DNA of 64,000 nucleotides from an uncultured Alphaproteobacteria bacterium (GCA_934216505.1 CAKQBW010000001.1:85788-149787), one strand, 5' to 3'; counted from the first letter of the stretch, positions 10,150 to 44,129 are shown. Program-made: numbers and translations. Notes: generated from the letters alone by a model not told the origin.

Positions 10150-11040
10150 CTATTGTTTTTTGAAAGATTTGTCAAGAGATGAATTCATTGCCTGAGCCCC
10201 TGACACAATGTCAATCAATTCATTTGTGATTTGATTTTGCCGTTCTTGTTGATAAATAAGGTCCAATTGAGCCAACTTTTTTTCAATGTTTTTTTCGGCT
10301 TGTTGCATATGAAGCATACGAATATAGTGTTCGCAGGCCAAACTACTGGTTAAAGCCTGAACCAAAAAAACAATTAAGTATTCTTGAGAAAGAGCCGAAA
10401 AAAGACTTTCGTTTTCGGGGTTAATAAGGGGAAGCATGCGCCCCGACCAAGGTGTTTCTTTGAGTTGTTTTAAGATTTCTTCAGAAAAAGGGAGTAATTG
10501 TAATTTTTGTGGTTGGAAAGAGTTGTTTTCTTTTTTGTTATAAAAAAGGAGGACTTTTTCAAAACTATCGGCAGAAATAAGTTGATTTACTTTTGTTAAA
10601 ATAGTATCGGCCAAAGAAGAAATTTCACTGAGTGTATTTGAGTTTGAATAGGAAAAATCAGGTTTTAATCCCTTTGAAAAAAAAGAAGTGCTCAATCTTT
10701 TACCGATAGTGATGAGTTTCATGGAAGCCAGAGGGGATTCTTTTTTAACCTCTTGAACCAATTCCCAATTAAAGCGTCCCACTAATCCATTGTCTGATCC
10801 AATGACAATAACCAATGTTTTTCCTGATTTTTGATGATTGCTTGTGTTGGGTAAAGAAAAAAACTCTTGACGAAATAGCCCTTGAAAAGCAAGACTAATC
10901 GTTTGGGTGTATTGATTTAATGAAACCAATGCTTTTTCGTATTGCCCTACACTGACAGAGGACAACAACTTCATTGTGGTCACAATACCATATAAATCAT
11001 TCGTTGTTTTAATTCTTTTTTTTAATACTTCCTGAGTCAT
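10150..11040 (-). CDS. atpG: ATP synthase gamma subunit (N-ATPase-type operon)
   Basis: 296 aa, gamma-family. Last gene of the atpDCQRBEFAG run. Confidence 0.75.
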   Translation of the reverse strand: MTQEVLKKRIKTTNDLYGIVTTMKLLSSVSVGQYEKALVSLNQYTQTISLAFQGLFRQEFFSLPNTSNHQKSGKTLVIVIGSDNGLVGRFNWELVQEVKKESPLASMKLITIGKRLSTSFFSKGLKPDFSYSNSNTLSEISSLADTILTKVNQLISADSFEKVLLFYNKKENNSFQPQKLQLLPFSEEILKQLKETPWSGRMLPLINPENESLFSALSQEYLIVFLVQALTSSLACEHYIRMLHMQQAEKNIEKKLAQLDLIYQQERQNQITNELIDIVSGAQAMNSSLDKSFKKQ

Positions 11041-12563
11041 TTTTCAAAAGGCAGTCCTTTTTTAATAAATTCTTTTTGAAAGACATCTAACATCTTTCTT
11101 TTTTGTTCATCGGTTATTTTTTCCCGTTTGAGGATATGGTGAGAAATATCCGAAAATTTACCCATCATCAGTTGATGAATTACCTCTTGTGCTTTCAAAA
11201 TTTGTTTTTCGTCCATTTGGTCCAACAATCCTTCGTTCAAGGCCATAAACAAACCGATTTGCGTTATTGCATCAACAGGAAAGTATTGCCTTTGGGTGAG
11301 GGCTGAACGAATAGCCTGACCTCTTTTTAACTTCATTAAAGTGGTCTTATCCATTTGCATGCCAAACTTTGAAAAAGATTCTAATTCTTCAAATTGGGCA
11401 TAAAATAGTTTTAAAGGACCAATTAAGGACCGATAAGCAGGCAGTTGGGCTTCTCCGCCCACACGGGAAACAGATCGCCCTGTGTCAATGGCTGGCATAA
11501 TGCCTTTTTGATACAGGTCATTGGACAGGTAAATTTGTCCATCTGTGATTGAAATGACATTCGTTGGAATATAGGCCGATATGTTGCCAGCTTCAGTCAG
11601 AACAATAGGTAGGGCTGTTAAAGAGCCCCCCCCAAATTTGGGGCGTAAATGAGTGGCCCGTTCCAATAATCTAGAGTGTAAGTAAAAAATATCCCCAGGA
11701 AAGGCTTCTCGGCCAGGAGGCGTTTTTAACAACAGCGACATTTGACGATAAGTTTGAGCATGGGCTGTTAAATCGTCATAAACAACCAAGACATCTTTTC
11801 CTTGATGCATAAAGTATTCTCCAATAGCTGTTGCCGAATAAGGGGCGATGTACTGCATCCCCGCTTCTTCATCACCACTGGCAATGACAACAACGCTTTG
11901 AGTGAGCATATCGTGTTCCTCTAAAGTATGAATGACACGGGCTGTATTACTTTGTCTTTGTCCGATGGCACAGTAAATACAAATAACGCCTGTTTCTTTT
12001 TGGTTTAAAATCGTATCCAAAGCGATGGCGGTTTTTCCAGTTTGTCTATCGCCCAAAATTAATTCCCGTTGTCCGCGTCCAATAGGAGTAAAGCAATCTA
12101 TGGCCTTAATTCCTGTTTGTAAGGGGGTATCCACAGGCGCACGCATCATAATTTCAGGGGCAGGGTGTTCTATTTCAGAAAACTCTTTTGTTAAAACTTT
12201 CCCCTTTTTATCCAAAGGTTCCCCTAATGGATTGATGATGCGTCCCAAAAGAGCGTTGCCCACGGGAATACTTAAAACTTGATGTGTTTGGGTTGCTTTA
12301 TCGCCCGCCTTTAAATTTTGGGAGTTTTTTAAAAACACAATGCCGACACTTTCCTCATTCAGGTTATGCACCATCGCAATAGCCTCATTTTTAAAATGGA
12401 GTAATTCGTTCAATTTGACTTCGCTGAGCCCTGAAACCAAGGCGGTTCCTGCGGCCATAGATAAAATTTCATTGTTTTCTTTTACTTTCAGGGAAAAAGA
12501 AGTTTTCTTGATGGCTTCCGTTGTGATTTTTTTTGCTGTTTCAGACACACTTTTTTTCATCAT
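11037..12563 (-). CDS. atpA: ATP synthase alpha subunit
   Basis: Walker A GDRQTGKT and the alpha-subunit signature. Confidence 0.9.
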   Translation of the reverse strand: MMKKSVSETAKKITTEAIKKTSFSLKVKENNEILSMAAGTALVSGLSEVKLNELLHFKNEAIAMVHNLNEESVGIVFLKNSQNLKAGDKATQTHQVLSIPVGNALLGRIINPLGEPLDKKGKVLTKEFSEIEHPAPEIMMRAPVDTPLQTGIKAIDCFTPIGRGQRELILGDRQTGKTAIALDTILNQKETGVICIYCAIGQRQSNTARVIHTLEEHDMLTQSVVVIASGDEEAGMQYIAPYSATAIGEYFMHQGKDVLVVYDDLTAHAQTYRQMSLLLKTPPGREAFPGDIFYLHSRLLERATHLRPKFGGGSLTALPIVLTEAGNISAYIPTNVISITDGQIYLSNDLYQKGIMPAIDTGRSVSRVGGEAQLPAYRSLIGPLKLFYAQFEELESFSKFGMQMDKTTLMKLKRGQAIRSALTQRQYFPVDAITQIGLFMALNEGLLDQMDEKQILKAQEVIHQLMMGKFSDISHHILKREKITDEQKRKMLDVFQKEFIKKGLPFEK

Positions 12564-13339
12564 TACTCCTTCACAGACTCATTTTGCATTAGAGAAGAAT
12601 TTAAATTTTGGCCCAATTCATCAAAATAATTTTGAATGGACCAATCAATAGTGATAGCATTGATACATAATTCTATACCAAAAATCAAATCTTCTCTTGT
12701 TTGATATTTTATTTGACATTTTACGGGAAATAAAAACTCTTTTTTCAAAAAAGAAGATATTTTATTTTTCTGATTATTTGTTAAATCTTTAGATGAATTA
12801 ACAAAAACAACCTTTTGATTTTTCAATGAATTATTTAGTCTATTCTTCTCTTTTTTTGTTAAGGCAGAACACTTATCCATAAATAGGTCCAAAATCCTAT
12901 CTATAGGTGTTTCTTCCGTTAAAGTTGTTAGAACTTTTTCCGAAATGTTCAAAAAATCCTGACAGATGGTATGCAGGGTTTCTGATTTCAGTTGCTGTTC
13001 TTCTTCTTTTACAGTTTCTAAAGACTTTTGACGCAGCAAATTGATTTGCTCTTTCAGGTGCGTCATTTCTTTGAGACGTACCTTTTTGATTTCATCGGCC
13101 AACGCTTGTTTTTGTTGTTGCTCAAAAACTTCATATCTTTCTTTTTCTTTTTTCAAATCAAGCGACATCTTATCCACTTCTTTTGTTTTTAAAGAAACAG
13201 ATTGGATTTCTTGATTGATTTCATCTTGACGCTTTTGAATTATCCGTAAAACAGGGTGGTACAGAAATCGTTTTAATATCCATACCAAAACGAACAAATT
13301 TACAATTTGCGCAAAAAATGTCATTGGGTCTATCCCCAT
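12563..13339 (-). CDS. atpF: ATP synthase subunit b, unusually long (258 aa), possibly with a delta-like C-terminal extension
   Basis: N-terminal TM helix plus a long coiled coil. No separate delta gene exists in the operon. The C-terminal ~60 aa are non-coiled and only weakly delta/OSCP-like. Confidence 0.6.
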   Translation of the reverse strand: MGIDPMTFFAQIVNLFVLVWILKRFLYHPVLRIIQKRQDEINQEIQSVSLKTKEVDKMSLDLKKEKERYEVFEQQQKQALADEIKKVRLKEMTHLKEQINLLRQKSLETVKEEEQQLKSETLHTICQDFLNISEKVLTTLTEETPIDRILDLFMDKCSALTKKEKNRLNNSLKNQKVVFVNSSKDLTNNQKNKISSFLKKEFLFPVKCQIKYQTREDLIFGIELCINAITIDWSIQNYFDELGQNLNSSLMQNESVKE

Positions 13340-13348
13340 TTTATCTCC

Positions 13349-13627
13349 TTATTTTGCTGCGTTTTCAATGACATAATTCCAAAAAGGATTGGCGTATAAA
13401 ATTAAAACAGTAATCACGAAAGAATAAATCGCGGTTGATTCAATCATTGCCATTGAAACGAACAAAGTCCGTGTAATATTGGAAGACTCATCAGGTTGTT
13501 GTGCCATCGCCTTTAAAGCATTGGCCGCTGCATTTCCTTCTCCTAATCCCGCAGAAATGCCCCCAATGGCAATACATAACGCTGCCGAAAAAACAGAAAC
13601 AGCACCAATTAAAGAAATTCCGTCCAT
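13349..13627 (-). CDS. atpE: ATP synthase c subunit with Na+-binding signature
   Basis: Two-helix hairpin. Helix 1 has GLGEG (Glu where H+ rings have Q or other residues). Helix 2 has ESTAIY (E, S, T and Y ligands as in Na+-binding c-rings). Confidence 0.8.
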   Translation of the reverse strand: MDGISLIGAVSVFSAALCIAIGGISAGLGEGNAAANALKAMAQQPDESSNITRTLFVSMAMIESTAIYSFVITVLILYANPFWNYVIENAAK

Positions 13628-13628
13628 T

Positions 13629-14327
13629 TTAATTCTCCTTTGTTGTATCGGTTATTGTTTGAAAAGGCTTTTGTGGGGCTACTGCCGATACATATACAAT
13701 AGCCAAAAGCGCAAAGATGTAGGCTTGAATCGTCCCTGTAATTAACCCTAATAATTGCATGGGGAGAGGGACGAGAAAAGGAACAAGCATAAGTAAAACA
13801 CTGGAAATAACCGCCCCGCTTAAAACATTTCCATACAAACGAAACGCCAAGGAAAAGCATGATGAAAAATCACTGATAATGTTCATCGGAGCCATCACAG
13901 GAGTGGGTTCAATAAATTTTTTAAAATACCCTTTTACGCCTCCGTTTTTGATGCCGTAATAAGGAATAGCAAAAAAAACACAGCAAGAAAAAGCAACAGT
14001 GGTGGTCAAACTGCCTGTGGGGGATTTAAACCAAGGAATAATAGATAACAAATTACACATTGCAATGAAAAAGAAAAATGTCCCGATAATCGCCATATAT
14101 TTGATGGGATTATCGCCAGAAACCTCTTTGATTTGATTTTCTATGGCTGATACAATCATTTCCAATAAAACTTGGGTTTTCCCTGGATTATGCGTTTTTA
14201 AACGGGCCGTCAGGACATAACAAAAAACGAAAAGCAAAAACATGACAATCCAAGTATAAAAAACGGTCGCATTGATATCCAATGTGGCAAGAGAAAATAA
14301 AATTGTCTTATCCAAATTTTCTACCAT
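13629..14327 (-). CDS. atpB: ATP synthase a subunit
   Basis: Polytopic membrane protein with the a-subunit conserved Arg region (LAFRLYGNV). Confidence 0.8.
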   Translation of the reverse strand: MVENLDKTILFSLATLDINATVFYTWIVMFLLFVFCYVLTARLKTHNPGKTQVLLEMIVSAIENQIKEVSGDNPIKYMAIIGTFFFFIAMCNLLSIIPWFKSPTGSLTTTVAFSCCVFFAIPYYGIKNGGVKGYFKKFIEPTPVMAPMNIISDFSSCFSLAFRLYGNVLSGAVISSVLLMLVPFLVPLPMQLLGLITGTIQAYIFALLAIVYVSAVAPQKPFQTITDTTKEN

Positions 14328-14621
14328 TTATTTCACTTTCCCCTTTTTGACTTTGAACACGAAAATAGAGCGCATAACCATAAATCCCAAGATAAAAGGC
14401 AACAATTTCATCATTTCCCATTTCGTTAAAATAAAAGTAATTAAAACGAATAACCCCAGCCTTATTATTGTTGTTAAAAATAAATAGACGCCTTTTTTAT
14501 TGATGGTATTCAATTTCTTGACAGATGCCAACAACAACAGACAATAACCATACCCTACGGCGGCACCCAGTAAAATAAATTCCAAAAGAAGGGATAAAGA
14601 AATGTCAATGCTTTTTGTCAT
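14328..14621 (-). CDS. atpR: AtpR-like small membrane protein of N-ATPase operons
   Basis: 97 aa with two TM helices, each containing an Arg (IIRLGLFV, MVMRSIFV). It sits between atpQ and atpB. Confidence 0.6.
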   Translation of the reverse strand: MTKSIDISLSLLLEFILLGAAVGYGYCLLLLASVKKLNTINKKGVYLFLTTIIRLGLFVLITFILTKWEMMKLLPFILGFMVMRSIFVFKVKKGKVK

Positions 14622-14911
14622 TTTTCCCCTTTGTTATTTGAAAGGATCTTTTTAGCCATATATTGGCGTTAATTAAACCGATAATAAATCCCAAAATAAT
14701 GAAATTTAACTGCCACGAAAGTAAGTCATGAGGAAACAGATGATCCAGATAAGACCCCAACAAAATGCCCCCTAAAACAGGCAAAGCCACCTGAAATCCA
14801 TAAATACTAATCACAGATGCATTATAAAAGAAAGTGCGTGATTTTCGTTTTTGACGATACTCTGTTTTCTTAATCAGTTGAGATTCTGTGCGTTTAAGAT
14901 GTTTTTGTAAA

Positions 14912-14919
<8 letters not shown>
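14605..14919 (-). CDS. atpQ: AtpQ / AtpI-like membrane protein of N-ATPase operons
   Basis: 104-aa hydrophobic protein between atpC and atpR. Confidence 0.55.
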
Positions 14920-16737
<1,818 letters not shown>

Positions 16738-16803: not shown

Positions 16804-17553
16804 ATGAAAAAGGCTCCTTTTAAAATAAATTTTTATCTTGGAAAAGAACAAGCACAAGATGCTTGCACTTTTTGTCAACAACGCTATGGACAATCTGATT
16901 TAAATCAAGCTGAAGTGCAAGTTGTTTTGGGGGGCGATGGGTCTATTTTAACGGCTTTAAAAGAGCAAATTAAATTAGGTGTAAATATTCCTATTTTTGG
17001 ATTAAATTATGGTTCCAAAGGTTGGCTGGCTAATGATGGGGCAATCAATGATTTATATCGGCGTATTCAACAGGCACAAAAGCAAGTGATTACACCCCTT
17101 CAAATTACCCTGACCTCCACAGTTGATGGAAAAAGGAAAGTGGCCTATGCTTTTAACGAATTTTCTGTTTTGCGTTCTTCGCCTCAGGCGGTGCATTTGC
17201 CTCTTGTCTTACAAGATGAAAAAATGAAATTTCATCTGTATTTAGAAGGCGATGGTGTTATTATGGCGACCCCAATGGGGAGTAATGCTTATTATGCGAC
17301 AATGGGGGGGAAGCCATTGGATATGTCGCAAAAAGCTATGTTGGTCCGTTCTATTAATGCGGTGAAGCCCTTTGATTTATTGATGTCAGAAAAAACGAAG
17401 TTAGGAATTGGTAAATATCAAGGTGAAAAAAGACCGATGATGGTAGAAGGTGATGGAGAAAGAATTGAAAATGTCTCTCGGGCCGTTGTCCGTTATGCCT
17501 TTGATAAAAGAAAAACACTTCTTTTTGATGCCTGTCGTAAGAGGCAACGTTAA
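16804..17553 (+). CDS. ppnK: NAD+ kinase
   Basis: GGDGSIL motif and NEFSV region. The ORF-track start at 16768 overlaps the promoter, so the MKKAPFK start at 16804 is preferred. Confidence 0.8.
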   Translation: MKKAPFKINFYLGKEQAQDACTFCQQRYGQSDLNQAEVQVVLGGDGSILTALKEQIKLGVNIPIFGLNYGSKGWLANDGAINDLYRRIQQAQKQVITPLQITLTSTVDGKRKVAYAFNEFSVLRSSPQAVHLPLVLQDEKMKFHLYLEGDGVIMATPMGSNAYYATMGGKPLDMSQKAMLVRSINAVKPFDLLMSEKTKLGIGKYQGEKRPMMVEGDGERIENVSRAVVRYAFDKRKTLLFDACRKRQR

Positions 17554-18215
17554 TCGTATAACTGATTTTGGTTAGTGCACTGACTGTCAATGGCGATGTC
17601 AAATTCGGCGGCGCAGCATATATCGTCTAACTGGGAAGAAAAATGTGTATCCGAATAATTGGCCACATAATGACAGCACCCTCCTTTTCCATCAGCATAG
17701 GGAGTGTTTTCGTGACATTCACATGTTTTATCTCCCGCTTCACAAGGCGTGCATTGATTATCCTTTAAATAGTTTCCCGCCTGACAGACAGGACTTTTCT
17801 TTTCGTTGAGGTCAATGTTATAGTACAGTTCGGTACAATCGTTATTTGTTCCTTGAATTAAAGCACTTCCAGTGATGATTTCTTTTATTTGCTGGCAAAC
17901 TTTTGGTTTTGGTTGAGATAAAGTGAGTTGAAATTGGCTTTTGTTGATTTTTTGCGCCCCTAGGAAAAACTCATTTTCTTCCGTAAATTCACTCAAAGAA
18001 AGAGGGCGATTTTCTTGAATTTGGGTGGAAATGACTAGAGCCCGTTGATTGGCTTGATTTAAGATATTTTCGGCTTTATTCTTGTCTAAAATAAGATAAT
18101 AACAAAGAATGGCAGTAATTGCCAAAATAATAATGACAAAGAAAACAGCGACAACCTCTAATTTTGTTGCGCCGAATTCCCAAAATTTTTTATTCTTTCT
18201 TTGAGTGTTTACCAT
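17550..18215 (-). CDS. type IV prepilin-like Cys-rich protein, paralog C of the family at 39.7 and 42.8 kb
   Basis: N-terminus KKFWEFG|ATKLEVVAVFFVIIILAI (Gly, Glu at +5, hydrophobic helix). Shares the RAxVxSTQIQ and VCxQ(I/M)K…GxxNDCT(E/T) blocks with the other two paralogs. The C-terminal half has at least 12 Cys. Confidence 0.5.
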   Translation of the reverse strand: MVNTQRKNKKFWEFGATKLEVVAVFFVIIILAITAILCYYLILDKNKAENILNQANQRALVISTQIQENRPLSLSEFTEENEFFLGAQKINKSQFQLTLSQPKPKVCQQIKEIITGSALIQGTNNDCTELYYNIDLNEKKSPVCQAGNYLKDNQCTPCEAGDKTCECHENTPYADGKGGCCHYVANYSDTHFSSQLDDICCAAEFDIAIDSQCTNQNQLYD

Positions 18216-29882: not shown

Positions 29883-30581
29883 TTATTTCATGTGTATTAA
29901 AAAAAAGCTGATAAAAGCGGCAACCCCTAGGGCAGGGCCATAGGCTCCCTTTTTATGGATATTTAAAGCAGAAAAGAGGACAAAAAATAAAAATGATAAA
30001 ATTAAGGTGCTACTCAATCCAATCACCCCTAACCATGACCCTAAGGCGGTAATCATTTTAACATCGCCACAGCCCAATTCTTTTTTAGGTGAAAAAGCCA
30101 AAGCTAGTACAGACAAAATGGAAACAAGGTAGCCACTAAAAGCTCCCGCTAAGGCCATTTCAACGGAAAAAGAAGCGGATTGGGTGGCAAACAAAATTCC
30201 CAATAATAAAAGGGGGAGGGTGAAAAAATCAGGTAAAAGGCAATACAGTGCATCTACAATGATGGAAGCACATACAATCCATATAAAAAGACATGCTAAA
30301 ATCTGTAAGGGGGCAGGAATCAATAAGGAGACCAAAGCAAAAAGAACTGCACATAAACCTGCCCAAAAAAGGCCCCAATAGTAAAGTTTATTTCTGATTT
30401 TTTTCCACAGTAAATAGCGTTGTTCGTTTTTTTTATGGGGGATTCTGGGGCGATGAAACAAACGCAAAATAATTTCACCTGGATCGGCGGGAATCAACTT
30501 TCCAAACCTTCCCGAAAAAAAGGGGAGGATGAAACCCAATAGCATGCCCCATACAGCAAAAAGAATAATTTTGTTTTCCAT
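29883..30581 (-). CDS. A24-family prepilin peptidase (no N-terminal methyltransferase or zinc domain)
   Basis: Polytopic membrane protein with LGCGDVKMITALGSWLG, matching the second catalytic Asp region GGGDVKL of type IV prepilin peptidases. Confidence 0.6.
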   Translation of the reverse strand: MENKIILFAVWGMLLGFILPFFSGRFGKLIPADPGEIILRLFHRPRIPHKKNEQRYLLWKKIRNKLYYWGLFWAGLCAVLFALVSLLIPAPLQILACLFIWIVCASIIVDALYCLLPDFFTLPLLLLGILFATQSASFSVEMALAGAFSGYLVSILSVLALAFSPKKELGCGDVKMITALGSWLGVIGLSSTLILSFLFFVLFSALNIHKKGAYGPALGVAAFISFFLIHMK

Positions 30582-38049: not shown

Positions 38050-38124
38050 GGCCGGTTGGCAGAATGGCTTATGCAGAGGACTGCAAATCCTTTTATACTG
38101 GTTCGATTCCGGTACCGGCCTCCA
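38050..38124 (+). tRNA. tRNA-Cys (anticodon GCA)
   Basis: Acceptor GGCCGGT/ACCGGCC, anticodon loop CTGCAAA, T-arm ACTGG TTCGATT CCGGT, encoded CCA. Confidence 0.85.
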
Positions 38125-38144
38125 AAAATTATGACAAATAGTTC

Positions 38145-38172
38145 TTGCTTTTTAAAAAACTTTTTGTTATAA
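38145..38172 (+). promoter_or_regulatory. sigma70 promoter for tRNA-Asn (TTGCTT-16-TATAAT)
   Basis: Perfect -10 TATAAT at 38167-72. The tRNA starts at 38184. Confidence 0.5.
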
Positions 38173-38183
38173 TGACCACTGTT

Positions 38184-38258
38184 TCCAGCGTAGCTCAGTG
38201 GTAGAGCAATCGGCTGTTAACCGATTGGTCGTAGGTTCGAGCCCTACCGCTGGAGCCA
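38184..38258 (+). tRNA. tRNA-Asn (anticodon GTT)
   Basis: Acceptor TCCAGCG/CGCTGGA, D-arm GCTC AGTGGTA GAGC, anticodon loop CTGTTAA, T-arm GTAGG TTCGAGC CCTAC, encoded CCA. A terminator-like hairpin follows at 38262-38295. Confidence 0.85.
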
Positions 38259-38428
38259 ATTACAAGAGGAAGGTTGTTTTGCCCTCCTCTTTTTTATTTT
38301 AAACGAAAACGCCTTATTCGGCCAAAGATAATTTGAATACAGAAATACTCAATCAATTTACTTTTTTTGCTTGATTTTTGTTTTTTTTTCGTATCCTAAA
38401 AGTATAGGATCTTACTGAAAGGAAAAAA

Positions 38429-39223
38429 ATGACAAAAAAAACTGAAGAAAAGCCCCAATTAGTTCGCCAAGATGCTGATTTGCTGAACCCCATTGTCTCT
38501 ACTTGGACATATAAAGGAGAGATTATGGAGTTTATGGGGGTAAAGAGAACCCGCACCTTTGAAACAATGGACCACCCTGATTATGAACGAGGGGTGGGAT
38601 TCCGGGAACAAGAAGTTTGGATCCCCCGCCCTGGTCCAATGAAAGTCTTTAATAAAGATGGACTTTTAATTGAAGAAGGTACAGTAGATTTCGTTAAGGC
38701 TAAAGATGATATTGGCTCATGGAATTTGACTTATGTTGGGAAAATGACACGTTATGGCTATGATAAAAAGGGGAAACTTTTGTATCGTAGGGAAAGTGAA
38801 TTTTCACCTAAAGATTCTCATATAGAATGGAGTAAGCATTATGACAAAGAGGGTCAATTAGTAAGTGAATCCACTTATGATAAATACGGCAAGGAACGTT
38901 CATTTAAATTTTTTAACTCAGATTCAGGGGAACTAAGTTTCCGCACTTTTAATTCAAAGAGCGGGAAAGGCTATTATTTCTTTGGTGAGGAAAAAGCGGA
39001 TAAAAATCACCCTGAAGCACAGCGTTTAATTCGGGACAATATCGCCAGCAAGAAAACAGATAAAAAAGCACGGCGGGCCGCTTTAAAGGAAATTTTGGCG
39101 GCACGGCAAGAGGGGCAGACAGAAAAAGCACAAGAAATTCGTCATGAATTTGATAAAAGACCTCTACCAAAACCCTCTTTATGGGGTAAATTGACGACTC
39201 TTGTTAAAGGTAATCGGCGTTAA
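38429..39223 (+). CDS. MORN / YwqK-family repeat protein
   Basis: Tandem Y-x-x-G-x-x-x-G-x-W repeats (YGYDKKGKLLY, YDKEGQLVSESTY, YDKYGKERSF). The C-terminus is Lys/Arg-rich. Confidence 0.5.
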   Translation: MTKKTEEKPQLVRQDADLLNPIVSTWTYKGEIMEFMGVKRTRTFETMDHPDYERGVGFREQEVWIPRPGPMKVFNKDGLLIEEGTVDFVKAKDDIGSWNLTYVGKMTRYGYDKKGKLLYRRESEFSPKDSHIEWSKHYDKEGQLVSESTYDKYGKERSFKFFNSDSGELSFRTFNSKSGKGYYFFGEEKADKNHPEAQRLIRDNIASKKTDKKARRAALKEILAARQEGQTEKAQEIRHEFDKRPLPKPSLWGKLTTLVKGNRR

Positions 39224-39242
39224 AAAAGGAAAATCTTTTTTT

Positions 39243-39694: not shown

Positions 39695-40942
39695 ATGCAA
39701 AAAACAAATGAATCAGGGCGCAGTATGGTTGAAATGCTGGGCGTGTTGGCGATTATTGGCGTCCTCTCTGTCGGTGGCGTAGCGGGATTTAACCTTGCCA
39801 TGAATAAACATTGTGCTAATAATACTGTGGTCTATGTCAATCAGTTAGCTGTCCAAGGAACAAGTCAAATGCTGATGGGCGTAAAACCTTCTTTGGGGCA
39901 ATACCCTGACAAAACTCCCAGTGGATACCCGAGTACCCTCACGACAGAAGAAACTAATCCCAATGCTTTTTATGTAAAAATATCTCAAGTGCCGAGCGCT
40001 GTTTGCAAGCAAATCTTAGGTCTTCAAAAAGGGTGGCAGGCCGTCAATGACATTGGCTTTTATAATGGGGCAACGACTTGCGATGACAAAGAAAATGTGG
40101 ATATGTGGTTTGAAATTAAATCTTCCCTGAATAAAGAAAATGAAAATGTCCATTGTAAATCTCATCAGGATTGTTATAACTGGTTAGGATATGAGGCCCG
40201 TTGTTCTCCCAAAGGAATTTGTCTCCCATACTGTGGAGAAAATCAAGTTAAAACACCCGTTGGTTGTTGTGATAAAAATCGTGTTTTCAATGGTGGCTGT
40301 TGCATAAGTGATGTTATTGAAGAAAACGGCATTAAAAAATGCTGTGCCGCCAATGCTGATGTTTCTATTTGTTGCCCTGAAAACGAATGGGGAATCAATA
40401 TAAAGGGTGTTTTATCATGCATCTCTTGTGATGATCCTCGTGCTTTAGACAGCGGCTTTAGTTGGGGGTATTGTAAAGTTTGCCCTAACCGTCTTCGTAA
40501 TGCGAACCAATGTGCTCTCGGTTGCGCAGATCCATACGCCGTCAAAACATTAAGTGGATATTGCTATTGTCCAATGGACAGGCCTGTCCAAACACGTGAT
40601 GGAAAATGCCATCCCTGTCATTATGAAGAACGTAGTTCTGCCCAACCTGTTATAGGCATGCTTACCTTAGGGAGTCAAGGCATGATACACTACTGTAATC
40701 GTCGTGGCATAACCTACTCTTGGCCCTGTATTGAGGGAGAGGTCGGTATGGCTAAAAATGATACTCTTGCCATGGCAGATGGGAGCACCTATACCGCAAC
40801 CACAACGGAAGGCGCCTGTCTGGCCTGTGATACAGTGAATATTTCAAAACTCCCCTATCAAGCCCAATGTGAATCTTGTGGGGGACACTGGGACGGTGAA
40901 AATTGGTACACAGGCGTTTGTGTGCCAAAAGAAACAGACTAA
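39695..40942 (+). CDS. type IV prepilin-like Cys-rich secreted/surface protein, paralog A
   Basis: N-terminus MQKTNESG|RSMVEMLGVLAIIGVLSVGG (Gly, Glu at +5, hydrophobic helix), 23 aa identical to paralog B. Shares the VCKQILGL… block with paralogs B and C. The C-terminal ~280 aa contain about 40 Cys (CC and CxxC clusters). Confidence 0.55.
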   Translation: MQKTNESGRSMVEMLGVLAIIGVLSVGGVAGFNLAMNKHCANNTVVYVNQLAVQGTSQMLMGVKPSLGQYPDKTPSGYPSTLTTEETNPNAFYVKISQVPSAVCKQILGLQKGWQAVNDIGFYNGATTCDDKENVDMWFEIKSSLNKENENVHCKSHQDCYNWLGYEARCSPKGICLPYCGENQVKTPVGCCDKNRVFNGGCCISDVIEENGIKKCCAANADVSICCPENEWGINIKGVLSCISCDDPRALDSGFSWGYCKVCPNRLRNANQCALGCADPYAVKTLSGYCYCPMDRPVQTRDGKCHPCHYEERSSAQPVIGMLTLGSQGMIHYCNRRGITYSWPCIEGEVGMAKNDTLAMADGSTYTATTTEGACLACDTVNISKLPYQAQCESCGGHWDGENWYTGVCVPKETD

Positions 40943-40998
40943 TTCCTTGAAATAATTTGATTTTTCCATAAAAAAAGCCCCGTTCAGAGGCTTTGAAA

Positions 40999-41073
40999 TG
41001 GTGGGTGCGACAGGGATTGAACCTGTGACCCCTACCGTGTGAAGGTAATGCTCTCCCGCTGAGCTACGCACCC
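40999..41073 (-). tRNA. tRNA-Val (anticodon CAC)
   Basis: Minus-strand cloverleaf: acceptor GGGTGCG/CGCACCC, D-arm GCTC AGCGGGA GAGC, anticodon loop TTCACAC, T-arm ACAGG TTCAATC CCTGT, encoded CCA. On the minus strand a terminator hairpin plus T-run follows at plus-strand coordinates 40970-40994. Confidence 0.85.
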
Positions 41074-41145
41074 AAGTTCAATACTCAGGATTATAATATA
41101 AAGACTTTTATATGTCAAGCAAAAAAAACGCTCTTTCAAATTTTT

Positions 41146-41718
41146 TTGTTGAAAAATAATTTTGTATATGATAATTATAAAACTTATTTACACAAAAGAG
41201 GACAAATGAAAATTGAATTTAAAAATACTGATTCTTTTGAAAATCTGATAAGCACTATGAAAAAGGAAGATGAAATTGAATGCCCTGCTTTGGATTTTAT
41301 GGCGCAAAATTTAAAAGAATTACAAGAACGAATCAAGGCTGTGATTTCTTTGGGGGGCACCGTTTATTTCGTTAAGGAAAATTTAAGGTTTTCCCCCGAA
41401 AAGACACCTCAACAAGAAATGTTGTTTCACCTGTTAGAGGTCTTTAAAAACTTTGAGCAGGAAAATATCTTAAAAAGGCGGCGATTGGGAATTCAAAAAG
41501 CCAAAGAACAAGGAAAGTATGCCAAAGAACGGCGAAAAAAACTGCCCTCGGATTTACAAGAGGCCCTCTTAAAAGACAGAGAAAACGGCTTAAATGTATC
41601 GGAAATCATCCAAAAATACAAAATAAGCCGAAAGACATTTTATAACTATTCAAAAAATTCAACAAATAACATTTTAAAAAACATAGGCATTTTGTTGGGC
41701 AATGACTTGAAAGAATAA
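41146..41718 (+). CDS. serine recombinase (resolvase/invertase) family remnant: C-terminal half of the catalytic domain plus HTH, N-terminally truncated or degenerate
   Basis: LDFMAQNLKELQERIKAVISLGGTVYFV…EMLFHLLEVFKNFEQENILKRRRLGIQKAKEQGKYAKERRKK aligns with the LDRLGR…AEFERxxIxERTxxG region of Tn3/gamma-delta resolvases. The C-terminal …SEIIQKYKISRKTFYNY is the recombinase HTH. The N-terminal YxRVSTxxQ Ser-nucleophile block is absent. Adjacent to tRNA-Val. Confidence 0.55.
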   Translation: MLKNNFVYDNYKTYLHKRGQMKIEFKNTDSFENLISTMKKEDEIECPALDFMAQNLKELQERIKAVISLGGTVYFVKENLRFSPEKTPQQEMLFHLLEVFKNFEQENILKRRRLGIQKAKEQGKYAKERRKKLPSDLQEALLKDRENGLNVSEIIQKYKISRKTFYNYSKNSTNNILKNIGILLGNDLKE

Positions 41719-41721
41719 AAG

Positions 41722-42099
41722 TTATTGATTTTGATTAGCCAAGAATCTTTTTTGACGTTCTACATAGACTTGATAACTGTTCCAGTCTGCTTGAATTTCC
41801 TCAGAAAGTTCCTGAGCATAAGTTTGAAAATAAGCATTGGCTTTTATTCTTAACAACGATTTTTCTTTGTTTCCAGGTATTTCTGGCCCGTCCCAAGGCA
41901 AAGCCACGATGGCTTTTTCTTTGGTGGCCAAATTAAAATGAACATCACCAATAGCCAATGTCTTTTCAAAAGAAAGGTTGTGATTCCTTAAATAATCACG
42001 GTGAGAACATTCCCGCCCTTTTGAATCACGATTTTGACTTTTCGCCCAAATGGCAATCACTAATTCATTGTTTTCGTTGCCTGCGACGATATATCTCAT
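41722..42099 (-). CDS. hypothetical protein (125 aa), no family recognised
   Basis: ORF with reasonable coding statistics, convergent with the recombinase remnant. Confidence 0.35.
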   Translation of the reverse strand: MRYIVAGNENNELVIAIWAKSQNRDSKGRECSHRDYLRNHNLSFEKTLAIGDVHFNLATKEKAIVALPWDGPEIPGNKEKSLLRIKANAYFQTYAQELSEEIQADWNSYQVYVERQKRFLANQNQ

Positions 42100-42236
42100 A
42101 GTATTTTTCCTCCTTTAAGAACAAGTTTATTTTACCACAGAATTAAATTTTGTCAAGTTTATCTTTTAATGGGACAAAAATTGACATTTTGTATAAAGTT
42201 TGTTATACTGACTTTGAAAAGTATCAGGAAACTAAA

Positions 42237-42773
42237 ATGGTCCCTAAAGAAAAACTATTATTGCTTTCGTGTTGCGCCCCCTGCTCTGTCGGGGTTATTG
42301 AAGATTTAAAGCGTCAAGACGTGGATTTTACGGTCCTGTTTTTTAATCCGAACATTCAGCCCGTTGAGGAATATCAAAAGCGATTAGAGGAAAACAGGCG
42401 TATCTGTGCTCTGTATCATGTTCCTTTTATTGATTTAGAATATACGCCTCAGAAATGGAAAGAATTTGTCAAAGGCTTGGAAAACGAGCCCGAAAAAGGA
42501 AAAAGGTGTGATAAATGCTTTTACTTTCGGTTGAAAAGAACAGCACAATATGCCAAAGAAAATGGCTATACGCGTATTTCTTCAGTGTTGGGGATTTCTA
42601 GGTTCAAGGACTTTAATCAGGTTTGTCGGGCTGGATTAAAAGTTCAGGAGGAAGAAAATATCCCCTATGATACCGAAAATTGGCGCAAAAAAGGACGGCT
42701 GGAACGTTCAGAACATTTATCCAAAGAGTTGTCCCTTTACCGTCAAACATACTGTGGGTGCAAGCCGAGGTAA
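42237..42773 (+). CDS. queH: epoxyqueuosine reductase QueH (DUF208)
   Basis: LLLLSCCAPCSVGVIE…FFNPNIQPVEEYQKR is the QueH CCAPC and NPNIHP signature. The ATG at 42237 is preferred over the ORF-track start at 42150. Confidence 0.7.
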   Translation: MVPKEKLLLLSCCAPCSVGVIEDLKRQDVDFTVLFFNPNIQPVEEYQKRLEENRRICALYHVPFIDLEYTPQKWKEFVKGLENEPEKGKRCDKCFYFRLKRTAQYAKENGYTRISSVLGISRFKDFNQVCRAGLKVQEEENIPYDTENWRKKGRLERSEHLSKELSLYRQTYCGCKPR

Positions 42774-42802
42774 AGATTGGCTTTGGTCTAAACGACAAAT
42801 CA

Positions 42803-43882
42803 CTATTGACATAATGCGTAGAAGGTGCTGTAACGAGGGATGCCGTTCATGCTCTGACTGAAGGTACGGACGCCGAGTGCGTAGCTAGAATCATGACTGT
42901 TATTCGTCCAATAATAAGAACTCCCAAAAGCCACTTTCAAAGCGTTCCAGTCCGCCCCTGTACAATTACTCCCAGAACAATAACCAGTTTCATTATTATA
43001 TCCTCCCGTAATCCCTAAGTCAGAGAGCAAAGCTAAACTTTTTCCATGCGCCAAACACCAATTGCGTGCGGCCCACCAAGATATACCACTAGAAGAATAC
43101 AAAAATGTTTTGCCATTATAGGTTGTTTCTGTCCCATTGTCTAATGCTATACAGGTACCTGTTGTCGGAACAGCACCATTCTCCCATTTTCCCGTAATTT
43201 GACAATACTTCCCTGCTTCTTTACAATCGGCATTTGTCGTGCAATCCCCTGTGAGGTCTGTCTTACATTCCCCGTTTCCAGAGTTATCGCTCGGTTGCCA
43301 AATGCCTTCAGCACATTGACAGTAGCCATTCACACAAGTGGCCCCACCCGAACAACTGTCTGTGCATTCATCGCCTTTGGGCCCTGATGGCGCAGGGTCG
43401 TTGGGGGACAAATCGTTATTATAGGTAATCGTGGTACAACCGTCATCAATCTTTCGGATAATCCCATTTTCTCCTTTCATGGCTTTCATTTGGGTACAAA
43501 CTTCGTCTGGGACATTTTCCAAGGTCAAACTAAAACGCTTATCAGTATTTTTATTCCAATTGGCTAAGCCCGTAAATTTCGCCCCGCCAACTTCGTTATC
43601 TGTGAATTCGCCCGGTGTCGGAGCCTCAGCCCCTCTTTGAATCTGTGTGGAAACTACGACTGCCCGAAGGGAAGCTTGTTGCAACAATTCATTTGCCCGA
43701 TGTTTATTCATGGCGGTGGTATAGCCCACTATACCGCCCACACTTAAAACCCCAATAATCGCCAAAACGCCCAGCATTTCCACCATAGACCGCCCTGATT
43801 CTTCTTGCCGATAAAGGCGGGCGCCAAAAAGATAATGTTTTCCCCTACCCGAAAAGACTTTTTCTTTAATTGGACTTTTCAT
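42803..43882 (-). CDS. type IV prepilin-like Cys-rich protein with C-terminal C-type-lectin-like domain, paralog B (start codon uncertain)
   Basis: Contains …ESG|RSMVEMLGVLAIIGVLSVGG, identical at the protein level to paralog A. Has RAVVVSTQIQ and VCTQMKAM…DDGCTTITYNNDL blocks shared with paralog C, then an EGF-like Cys-rich stretch. The C-terminus has a GISWWAARNWCLAHGKSLALLSDL…YYWTNNSHD…YALCQ pattern resembling a C-type lectin-like domain (WxxAxxxCxxxGxxLAxxxS…C-terminal Cys). Confidence 0.5.
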   Translation of the reverse strand: MKSPIKEKVFSGRGKHYLFGARLYRQEESGRSMVEMLGVLAIIGVLSVGGIVGYTTAMNKHRANELLQQASLRAVVVSTQIQRGAEAPTPGEFTDNEVGGAKFTGLANWNKNTDKRFSLTLENVPDEVCTQMKAMKGENGIIRKIDDGCTTITYNNDLSPNDPAPSGPKGDECTDSCSGGATCVNGYCQCAEGIWQPSDNSGNGECKTDLTGDCTTNADCKEAGKYCQITGKWENGAVPTTGTCIALDNGTETTYNGKTFLYSSSGISWWAARNWCLAHGKSLALLSDLGITGGYNNETGYCSGSNCTGADWNALKVAFGSSYYWTNNSHDSSYALGVRTFSQSMNGIPRYSTFYALCQ

Positions 43883-44129
43883 ATTCTAAAACTCCCATAA
43901 TTAAAAAATCGCTGTGATGAGCAGCGGTTGGAAGCTAGAAAACTATTACAGAAATAGCGTCGCATATTGGGGCGTAAATAGGCCTGTATTTTGCGACCAT
44001 CCAACCATAAAGATTGGAATTTTTACATCGTTTGATGTCTGTATTGAAGGTTTTCTAGGCCTCCACCAGAGGAATCACCTCTGGCAAATTCACACTAGCA
44101 AAAAATAAATTAAATATCAAGTACAAAAA

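Follow-up and report, generated by a model that had tools for sequence, protein, structure and literature searches.

Three genes in a stretch of 64,000 nucleotides from an uncultured Alphaproteobacteria bacterium (GCA_934216505.1, CAKQBW010000001.1:85788-149787) encode proteins that share an N-terminal module and carry different cysteine-rich C-terminal heads. In this study, the whole stretch is called the window, positions are counted from its first letter, and the genes, which we regard as candidates for modular type IV pilin-like proteins, are called A, B and C. Gene A (39695-40942, + strand, 415 aa) was recognized as an open reading frame (ORF) with a GGGAG ribosome-binding site and by its similarity to B. 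On the + strand, its leader M1-G8 lies at 39695-39718, its pilin-like module, from R9 to about residue 153, at 39719-40153, and its head of 30 Cys, placed by the Cys positions, at 40154-40939. Gene B (42803-43882, - strand, 359 aa) also has an ORF with a GGGAG ribosome-binding site, and its domains were assigned with an AlphaFold model and matches to C-type-lectin-like domains (CTLDs). On the - strand, the leader M1-G30, the module R31-160, the linker with putative EGF-like Cys knots (161-249) and the CTLD (250-359) of B lie at 43793-43882, 43403-43792, 43136-43402 and 42806-43135, respectively. Gene C (17550-18215, - strand, 221 aa) is a divergent member recognized from its ORF and its similarity to B; its leader M1-G15, module (A16 to about 140) and 10-Cys head lie at 18171-18215, 17796-18170 and 17553-17795, respectively, on the same strand. 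Each of the three is a stand-alone gene with terminator-like hairpins close by, and A and B are convergent.

An earlier note on this DNA, made from the sequence alone, had proposed three ORFs with a homologous N-terminal module, and the pairwise comparisons agreed with it. The N-terminal identities of A/B, B/C and A/C were 39% over 114 aa (E 2e-21), 34% over 161 aa (E 9e-18) and 24% over 108 aa (E 1e-6), respectively, and no similarity was found when the C-terminal parts of the three were compared. As that note had also described, all three proteins start with a basic leader, followed by a Gly, four residues, a Glu at +5 and a stretch of roughly 20 hydrophobic residues. The Gly and Glu are G8/E13 in A, G30/E35 in B and G15/E20 in C, and the pattern is unique to these three among the ORFs of the window. 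It is a class III-type signal, which in A and B has Gly(-1) and Arg-Ser-Met-Val-Glu(+5). The shared module is about 130 residues long, has one conserved Cys pair and is joined to the head by a short Pro/Asp-rich linker. The conserved block that had been described for it was found in part: the VCxQ...C pair is present in A, B and C, but the RAxVxSTQIQ block is common to B and C only and is weak in A (LAVQGTSQML). The Cys numbers had been overestimated for A and misjudged for C: 33 Cys were counted in A, of which 30 belong to the head, instead of about 40, and C has 13, with 10 instead of 12 after the module. B has 16 Cys.

The usual leader of the family has 7-8 residues (MYKEKESG), and the 30-residue leader of B is an exception, which is common to the closest orthologues of B. 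There is no in-frame ATG, GTG or TTG between the ATG of B at 43882 and its Gly, so the long leader stands. Within it, LYRQEESG resembles what a MYK..ESG leader would become on losing its start codon. Three homologues of C were found, down to 57% identity, and G15 and ATKLE20 are invariant in all three. We also tried a Flp/Tad pilin identity and rejected it: such pilins need a mature length of about 50-60 aa and G/xxxxEY, and the mature lengths of A, B and C are 206-407 aa, with the motifs GRSMVEM and GATKLEV.

The shared module and the pilin fold

The pilin-like character of the N-terminus, as proposed earlier, was upheld by comparison with solved pilins. A module profile was built from 38 sequences (alignment A3) and searched against all PDB sequences. 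The results showed 22 matches at E<=10, of which 19 were type IV pilins, and the top matches were 8tob (E 1.2e-5) and Dichelobacter FimA 3sok (E 2e-4). The alignments were in register: Glu5 was paired with Glu5, and the precursor Gly with that of the geopilin precursor. Among 123-136 diverse members of the family, Glu+5 was the sole invariant column, and Gly-1, RSMVEMLGVLA..G.LS, a Tyr and the module Cys pair were at least 90% conserved. A run of 23 residues, ESGRSMVEMLGVLAIIGVLSVGG, is identical in A and B, and the 14 of its 69 nt that differ are all synonymous, including CGC/CGG and AGT/TCT. The earlier note had ascribed this run to purifying selection on the N-terminus, and the invariance of Glu5 fits this.

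The full-length AlphaFold model of B (mean pLDDT, the predicted local distance difference test, 84.7) left residues 1-47 disordered, and the module was then re-modelled alone. In the module-only model (pLDDT 84.7), a single helix spans model residues 10-61, which correspond to +1 to +52, and is followed by a loop, four strands and a short helix. In Foldseek, the best match of the module was CofA (probability 0.95, TM 0.53), and the best matches were true pilins, mostly of type IVb. In a pilin fold, an alpha1 helix of about 50 residues lies against an antiparallel sheet, and a disulfide is present at the C-terminus; the predicted module has these features. The profile alignments, the predicted structure and the conservation across the family are thus three independent lines that support the assignment of the shared module of A, B and C as type IV pilin-like.

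The heads and their exchange between alleles

The earlier note had proposed an EGF-like and a lectin-like part for B, and the second of these was well supported by the predicted fold. The B model has a low-confidence linker (161-170), small beta-hairpin Cys knots and a C-terminal alpha/beta domain. All 50 matches listed by Foldseek for this model in the PDB were CTLDs (langerin, CD94/NKG2A, MGL and CLEC9A), with probabilities of 0.85-1.0, a best E of 4.6e-3 and target TM-scores mostly of 0.4-0.6. Residues from about 250 to 359 of B share with langerin, CD94/NKG2A and MGL the fold, a WxxAxxxCxxxGxxL motif and the pairing of the first with the last Cys, and the helix motif WWSAxNWCxAHGKSL and these two Cys are kept in 78 homologues. 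The check with the C-type lectin model PF00059 failed, with no match on B at E<=1. We believe that the C-terminus of B is a CTLD, which is supported at the level of the predicted fold and does not imply lectin activity. The EGF-like part fared less well: B gave only a weak match to the EB module (E 0.03), but EB and EGF_Teneurin are clear in its relatives.

The head of A had five homologues among 5.8 billion proteins, all with the pilin and head arrangement, and every Cys of this head is invariant in the 5 orthologues. Among 207 long members of the family with 33 head clusters, the median Cys content was 8.4% in the heads and 1.5% in the module. Most heads of the family have no Pfam domain, and the few others carry F5/8 type C, Mucin2_WxxW or EGF/EB, which are binding domains of extracellular type, or PT-HINT. 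A modular pilin combines a pilin module with a further module whose use is not confined to pilus biology, and such modules are present here as the predicted CTLD of B and the Pfam domains of the relatives. Mucin2_WxxW repeats (E 6.9e-29) in 3 members of alignment A5 hint at mimicry of host mucin domains. Similarly, a Pretoxin-HINT/Hint domain in one A5 member and in the protein P0074 hints at a toxin-like cargo.

The heads had been described as exchangeable, and the comparison of relatives supported this more strongly than the window sequence by itself could. In 595 pairs of members, unrelated heads were joined to modules with an identity of 70% or more, the highest being 97.7%. The clearest case is gene A itself, in which a hypervariable head core of about 680 bp (40175-40855, + strand) is replaced in near-identical strains. 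In the near-identical strain L082, the A locus has the same gene order and flanks that are 96-99% identical; the identity to the window is 93-98% around 40175-40855, and there is no blastn match across the core. In 90-nt windows, the identity to L082 was about 95% through the promoter and module and 32-64% at about 40175-40855, then rose to at least 81%, with the similarity recovering over the last 30 codons of A and beyond. The protein identities between A and the allele of the near-identical strain were 97.4%, 37.1% and 93.3% in the module, core and tail, respectively.

At least three head alleles (A/P0121, P0123 and P0125) occupy this one syntenic chromosomal locus, with sharp breakpoints. 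Between the allele groups, the modules were more than 92%, the tails more than 90% and the head cores 35-44% identical. The core of A was 59% identical to that of P0122, whose module was 56% identical, and only 36% identical to those of P0123 and P0125, whose modules were 92-97% identical. This incongruence between core and module at the A locus therefore indicates recombinational replacement instead of gradual drift. The comparisons of aligned sequences show heads diversified by recombination that has its anchor points in the conserved module and, for A, also in the conserved last 30 codons. The B locus also differs in L082, where a 481-bp deletion (window 43454-43934) removes the promoter, the leader and the first 143 codons of the B orthologue (L082 9123-9656). 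What is left is a head-only ORF of 177 codons, perhaps a pseudogene or a silent cassette for a head.

Diversity-generating retroelements (DGRs) classically target the CTLD scaffold, and B has such a predicted domain, so its head might be taken for a DGR variable protein. Alternatively, A and B might form a shufflon- or invertase-type switch driven by a resolvase-like gene: tRNA-Val (40999-41073) and then a resolvase/invertase-like ORF (41146-41718) lie between the convergent A and B, and an inverted repeat of 111 nt, in which their shared N-terminal run is seen at the DNA level, joins their 5' ends, with one arm in the 5' coding region of A (39710-39820) and the other, 77% complementary to it, in that of B (43691-43801). 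We consider both ideas extremely improbable and rejected them. No reverse transcriptase was found in any scanned ORF of the window, and no pair of template and variable repeats was found in the window. The resolvase-like ORF matches profile positions 50-145 only, plus a weak HTH_7 match, and therefore is without the catalytic-Ser N-terminus, and its copy in L082 is the same. The arms of the repeat are only 77% identical, and its inversion would swap just the promoters and the identical leaders. Because it is kept in L082, the resolvase-like ORF may be a domesticated remnant.

The family, its processing and its assembly

With B as the query, more than 6,845 proteins were retrieved. The module profile gave 6,851, 5,078 and 503 clusters (50% identity) at E<=1e-3, 1e-10 and 1e-30, respectively, among 1.84 billion representatives, and at least 542 confirmed stretches were found in species-representative genomes. 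Of the 79 best loci, 77 were in metagenome-assembled genomes (MAGs) of uncultured 'Alphaproteobacteria bacterium', with human, rabbit, goat and buffalo samples among the sources; the remaining two were in a 3.3-kb contig binned as Acidaminococcaceae and in a 'Pseudomonadota bacterium' MAG. The first of these two, L001 (JAZLLX010000012.1, 3.3 kb), is the top-scoring locus, and this short contig was probably mis-binned. Among the same 79 loci, the MAGs SIG60, UBA3637, JAZRVC01 and JAZLAQ01 had 12, 9, 8 and 7 loci, respectively. The family to which A, B and C belong is thus very large and, as part of a modular-pilin reading that we hold to be probable, restricted to the lineage of uncultured gut Alphaproteobacteria.

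The relatives also encode short pilins of 113-148 mature residues with 2-4 Cys and the same N-terminal helix, GRSMVEMLGVLAIIGVLS, which are arranged in pairs or tandems. They were located in L015 (15995-18173), L014 (9001-10016), L047 (8930-10209), L067 (7669-8631), L076 (9167-10429) and L064 (572-1003), and no assembly genes were found in the neighbourhoods of these clusters. From their sequences, the short pilins are plausible candidates for the major subunits of a filament, and they speak for a genuine filament system in this lineage.

Several homologues bear automatic NCBI or JGI names ('type II secretion system protein', 'PulG' or 'FimT/FimU'), which speaks for A, B and C being pseudopilins of a type II secretion-like system, with the same A24 processing, a short periplasmic pseudopilus and heads whose place of action is the periplasm or the secretin. 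GspK, a known pseudopilin in which a domain is inserted (PMC8179133), also speaks for this. We consider this quite unlikely. A, B and C reached no NCBIfam type II secretion pseudopilin equivalog, with only E>=0.02 to PpdD-like and ComGE models, far below the cut-offs, and the best structural matches of the module are true pilins. A repertoire of 7-12 loci per MAG with discoidin, mucin-WxxW, EGF and CTLD heads is unlike a piston of five pseudopilins, the replacement of heads between strains suggests external selection, and short genes like those of major pilins exist with the same helix.

A candidate for the processing enzyme is encoded at 29883-30581 (- strand, 232 aa). The earlier note had named it an A24 prepilin-peptidase homolog, which was confirmed by a Peptidase_A24 score of 53.5 bits against a cut-off of 26.5 (PF01478 over residues 97-203) and by both catalytic Asp motifs (IVDA..LLPD and GCGDVK). 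The methyltransferase domain DiS_P_DiS had no match in this protein even at E<=10, and there were no other Pfam matches and no CxxC pairs. We propose that this peptidase would cut A, B and C after the Gly, and that it probably does not N-methylate them, because the methyltransferase domain is missing and the residue at +1 is Arg.

Several results weigh against the assignment of A, B and C to the type IV pilins. The earlier note had asked for a prepilin model hit and for a pilin-type helix, and only the second was obtained, as a predicted pilin-like helix with its sheet. PF07963 (N_methyl) scored 13.3 and 11.6 bits against a cut-off of 21.2, TIGR02532 scored 9.9 and 9.8 bits against a cut-off of 16.3, neither matched C, and 0 of 123 diverse family members matched N_methyl at E<=1e-3. 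Because the curated prepilin matches are sub-threshold, Pfam and NCBIfam scans do not settle pilin membership. The Foldseek E-values of the module were above 0.1, the first 47 residues of the full-length B model are low-confidence and non-helical, which is discordant with the module-only model, and Arg at +1 is unusual among pilins. Unlike the C-type lectins that it resembles, B has neither the PF00059 match nor, in residues 300-359, the Ca/sugar motifs EPN/QPD and WND. Window ORFs of at least 100 aa that were judged to be real genes were scanned against Pfam, and no pilus ATPase, platform protein, alignment protein or secretin was found among them in the 64 kb, as the earlier note had said for most of these. 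With the Walker-A regular expression GxTGSGK[ST], no secretion ATPase was found in 1.12 Mb flanking the 79 loci of relatives, where only UvrB-, PriA- and FtsK-like proteins were returned. The host is probably diderm, because AsmA and MlaD are encoded in the window, so the bulky heads would need passage through a secretin.

The lack of assembly machinery near about 110 family genes and the sub-threshold prepilin models are what would be expected if the prepilin-like N-terminus were only a signal-anchor, with the proteins retained in the inner membrane, whether or not they are cleaved, and their heads exposed to the periplasm without polymerization. Two homologues of B, P0037 and P0039, also fit this, since they fuse the hydrophobic helix straight to a B-type Cys-rich head without a globular pilin module. 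We think this explanation unlikely. Gly-1, Glu+5 and about 20 helix residues are nearly invariant over thousands of paralogues, whereas the rest drifts to about 25-40% identity, and a charged Glu within an anchor would be costly unless it were used. Moreover, the globular module keeps a predicted pilin fold and its disulfide, and eukaryote-like adhesion heads with rapid allelic turnover fit the periplasm poorly.

We therefore favour, with a fair degree of confidence, the reading of A, B and C as modular type IV pilin-like proteins that display variable adhesin heads; we infer the adhesin function and the incorporation into filaments. After cleavage by the A24 peptidase, the nearly invariant alpha1N helix would be used for extraction of the protein from the inner membrane and would polymerize the modular protein into a type IV filament, or onto its tip. 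The bulk of the filament would be formed by short pilins of 113-148 residues with the same helix, as in the relatives, and on this filament the heads would be displayed as adhesins that bind glycans and proteins of the host or of mucus.

Its gene content marks the window as an ordinary piece of the chromosome of an anaerobic bacterium. It encodes an Fe-only hydrogenase, an ATP synthase operon, pheST, RF1/PrmC, MurJ, DnaG, GAPDH, ileS and cell-wall enzymes, besides AsmA and MlaD. A plasmid origin was tried by tblastn against 72,556 plasmids, where nothing was found, and was rejected. The genes for a NuoF-like protein and the Fe-only hydrogenase large subunit (37-2669) point to an anaerobic, fermentative host. 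The ATP synthase genes (10150-16692, - strand) are in the order beta, epsilon, ATPase_gene1 (AtpI/Q-like), a, (c), b/delta-like, alpha and gamma, which we take to be closer to an N-type ATPase operon than to the usual F-type order. A stretch of about 0.9 kb (38310-39225), directly after tRNA-Cys and tRNA-Asn (38050-38258), is not present in L082, which is otherwise 98% identical; it contains an ORF of 264 aa (38429-39223) with only a weak MORN_2 match.

Known systems and biological meaning

Modular type IV pilins have been described in Streptococcus sanguinis, where PilB carries a vWA module and PilC a concanavalin-A-like lectin module (PMC8179133, PMC9934059). More than 1,200 modular pilins were found through IPR012902, and many more were predicted to be undetected (PMC8179133). 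Like PilB and PilC, the proteins in this study combine a class III signal, a small pilin module, a short linker and a grafted binding module, and the proposed role is likewise tip- or surface-exposed adhesion. In contrast, their module is a separate family that is missed by IPR012902/PF07963, and their heads, with CTLD, EGF and novel Cys domains, are rich in disulfides and eukaryote-like. There are 7-12 loci per MAG here instead of one or two genes, the bearers are probably diderm Alphaproteobacteria, and the heads are exchanged between alleles.

The type IVb pilins include CofA/CofB of enterotoxigenic Escherichia coli, TcpA/TcpB of Vibrio cholerae and PilS of Salmonella. B has a weak Pfam match to PilS_N, and CofB and TcpB have extra C-terminal domains, as in the A/B/C family. 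However, the sequence identity to type IVb pilins is 9-20%, the leaders usually have 7-8 residues as in type IVa, the residue at +1 is Arg, and the genes are scattered among housekeeping genes with no pilus operon.

In the R64/IncI1 shufflon PilV and in Neisseria PilE/pilS, the N-terminal pilin part is constant, and the exposed C-terminus varies through recombination. The A/B/C family is similar in its constant pilin part, its variable C-terminal part and the origin of this variation in recombination. No shufflon recombinase, sfx repeats or silent cassette array were seen in the window, and, unlike in PilV and PilE, the variation is seen from strain to strain and among complete paralogues that are each expressed separately, with no plasmid homologue.

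Many scattered genes with a prepilin-type N-terminus are also known from the DUF1559 family of Planctomycetota and Verrucomicrobiota and from Elusimicrobia, where their function is not known. The family in this study likewise has many scattered prepilin-like genes per genome, but its module is different (no DUF1559 or N_methyl match), its phylum and habitat are others, and its heads are modular and Cys-rich.

The family had been called undescribed, which holds for Pfam, NCBIfam and the searchable literature, where no paper was found on the motif GRSMVEML or its variants, and nothing relevant on RF32/CAG-239 with pili or secretion or on a prepilin with a C-type lectin. It does not hold for the concept of the modular pilin, which has been published (PMC8179133), and some members already had automatic names. 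The A/B/C family is a case of the undetected modular pilins predicted in that study, and its own features are the unmodelled pilin module, Arg at +1, eukaryote-like Cys-rich heads, the large repertoire per genome and cassette-like head replacement. Surveys of modular pilins that rely on motifs miss thousands of proteins, since the curated thresholds are not reached by the N-terminal signature of this family.

If the favoured reading is true, widespread uncultured gut Alphaproteobacteria spend many genes on binding heads displayed on pili. These heads resemble extracellular domains of the host, namely C-type lectin, EGF, discoidin and mucin-2 WxxW domains, and the family would offer a concrete handle on attachment to mucus or host cells and on the differences between strains. 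The sharp replacement of head cassettes in a chromosome that is otherwise 96-99% identical would then be a clean natural case of recombination-driven adhesin variation. We also speculated, tentatively and as a doubtful possibility, that these proteins belong to a new subclass of type IV filaments, with an Arg+1 signal, a peptidase without a methyltransferase domain, machinery unlinked to the pilin genes and a role as a universal display stalk. Such a stalk would carry a large set of eukaryote-like binding heads rich in disulfides, and recombination with its anchor in the invariant module would swap their cassettes between paralogues and strains. If so, this filament subclass would be a pilus-borne system of adhesin and antigen variation in a commensal lineage.

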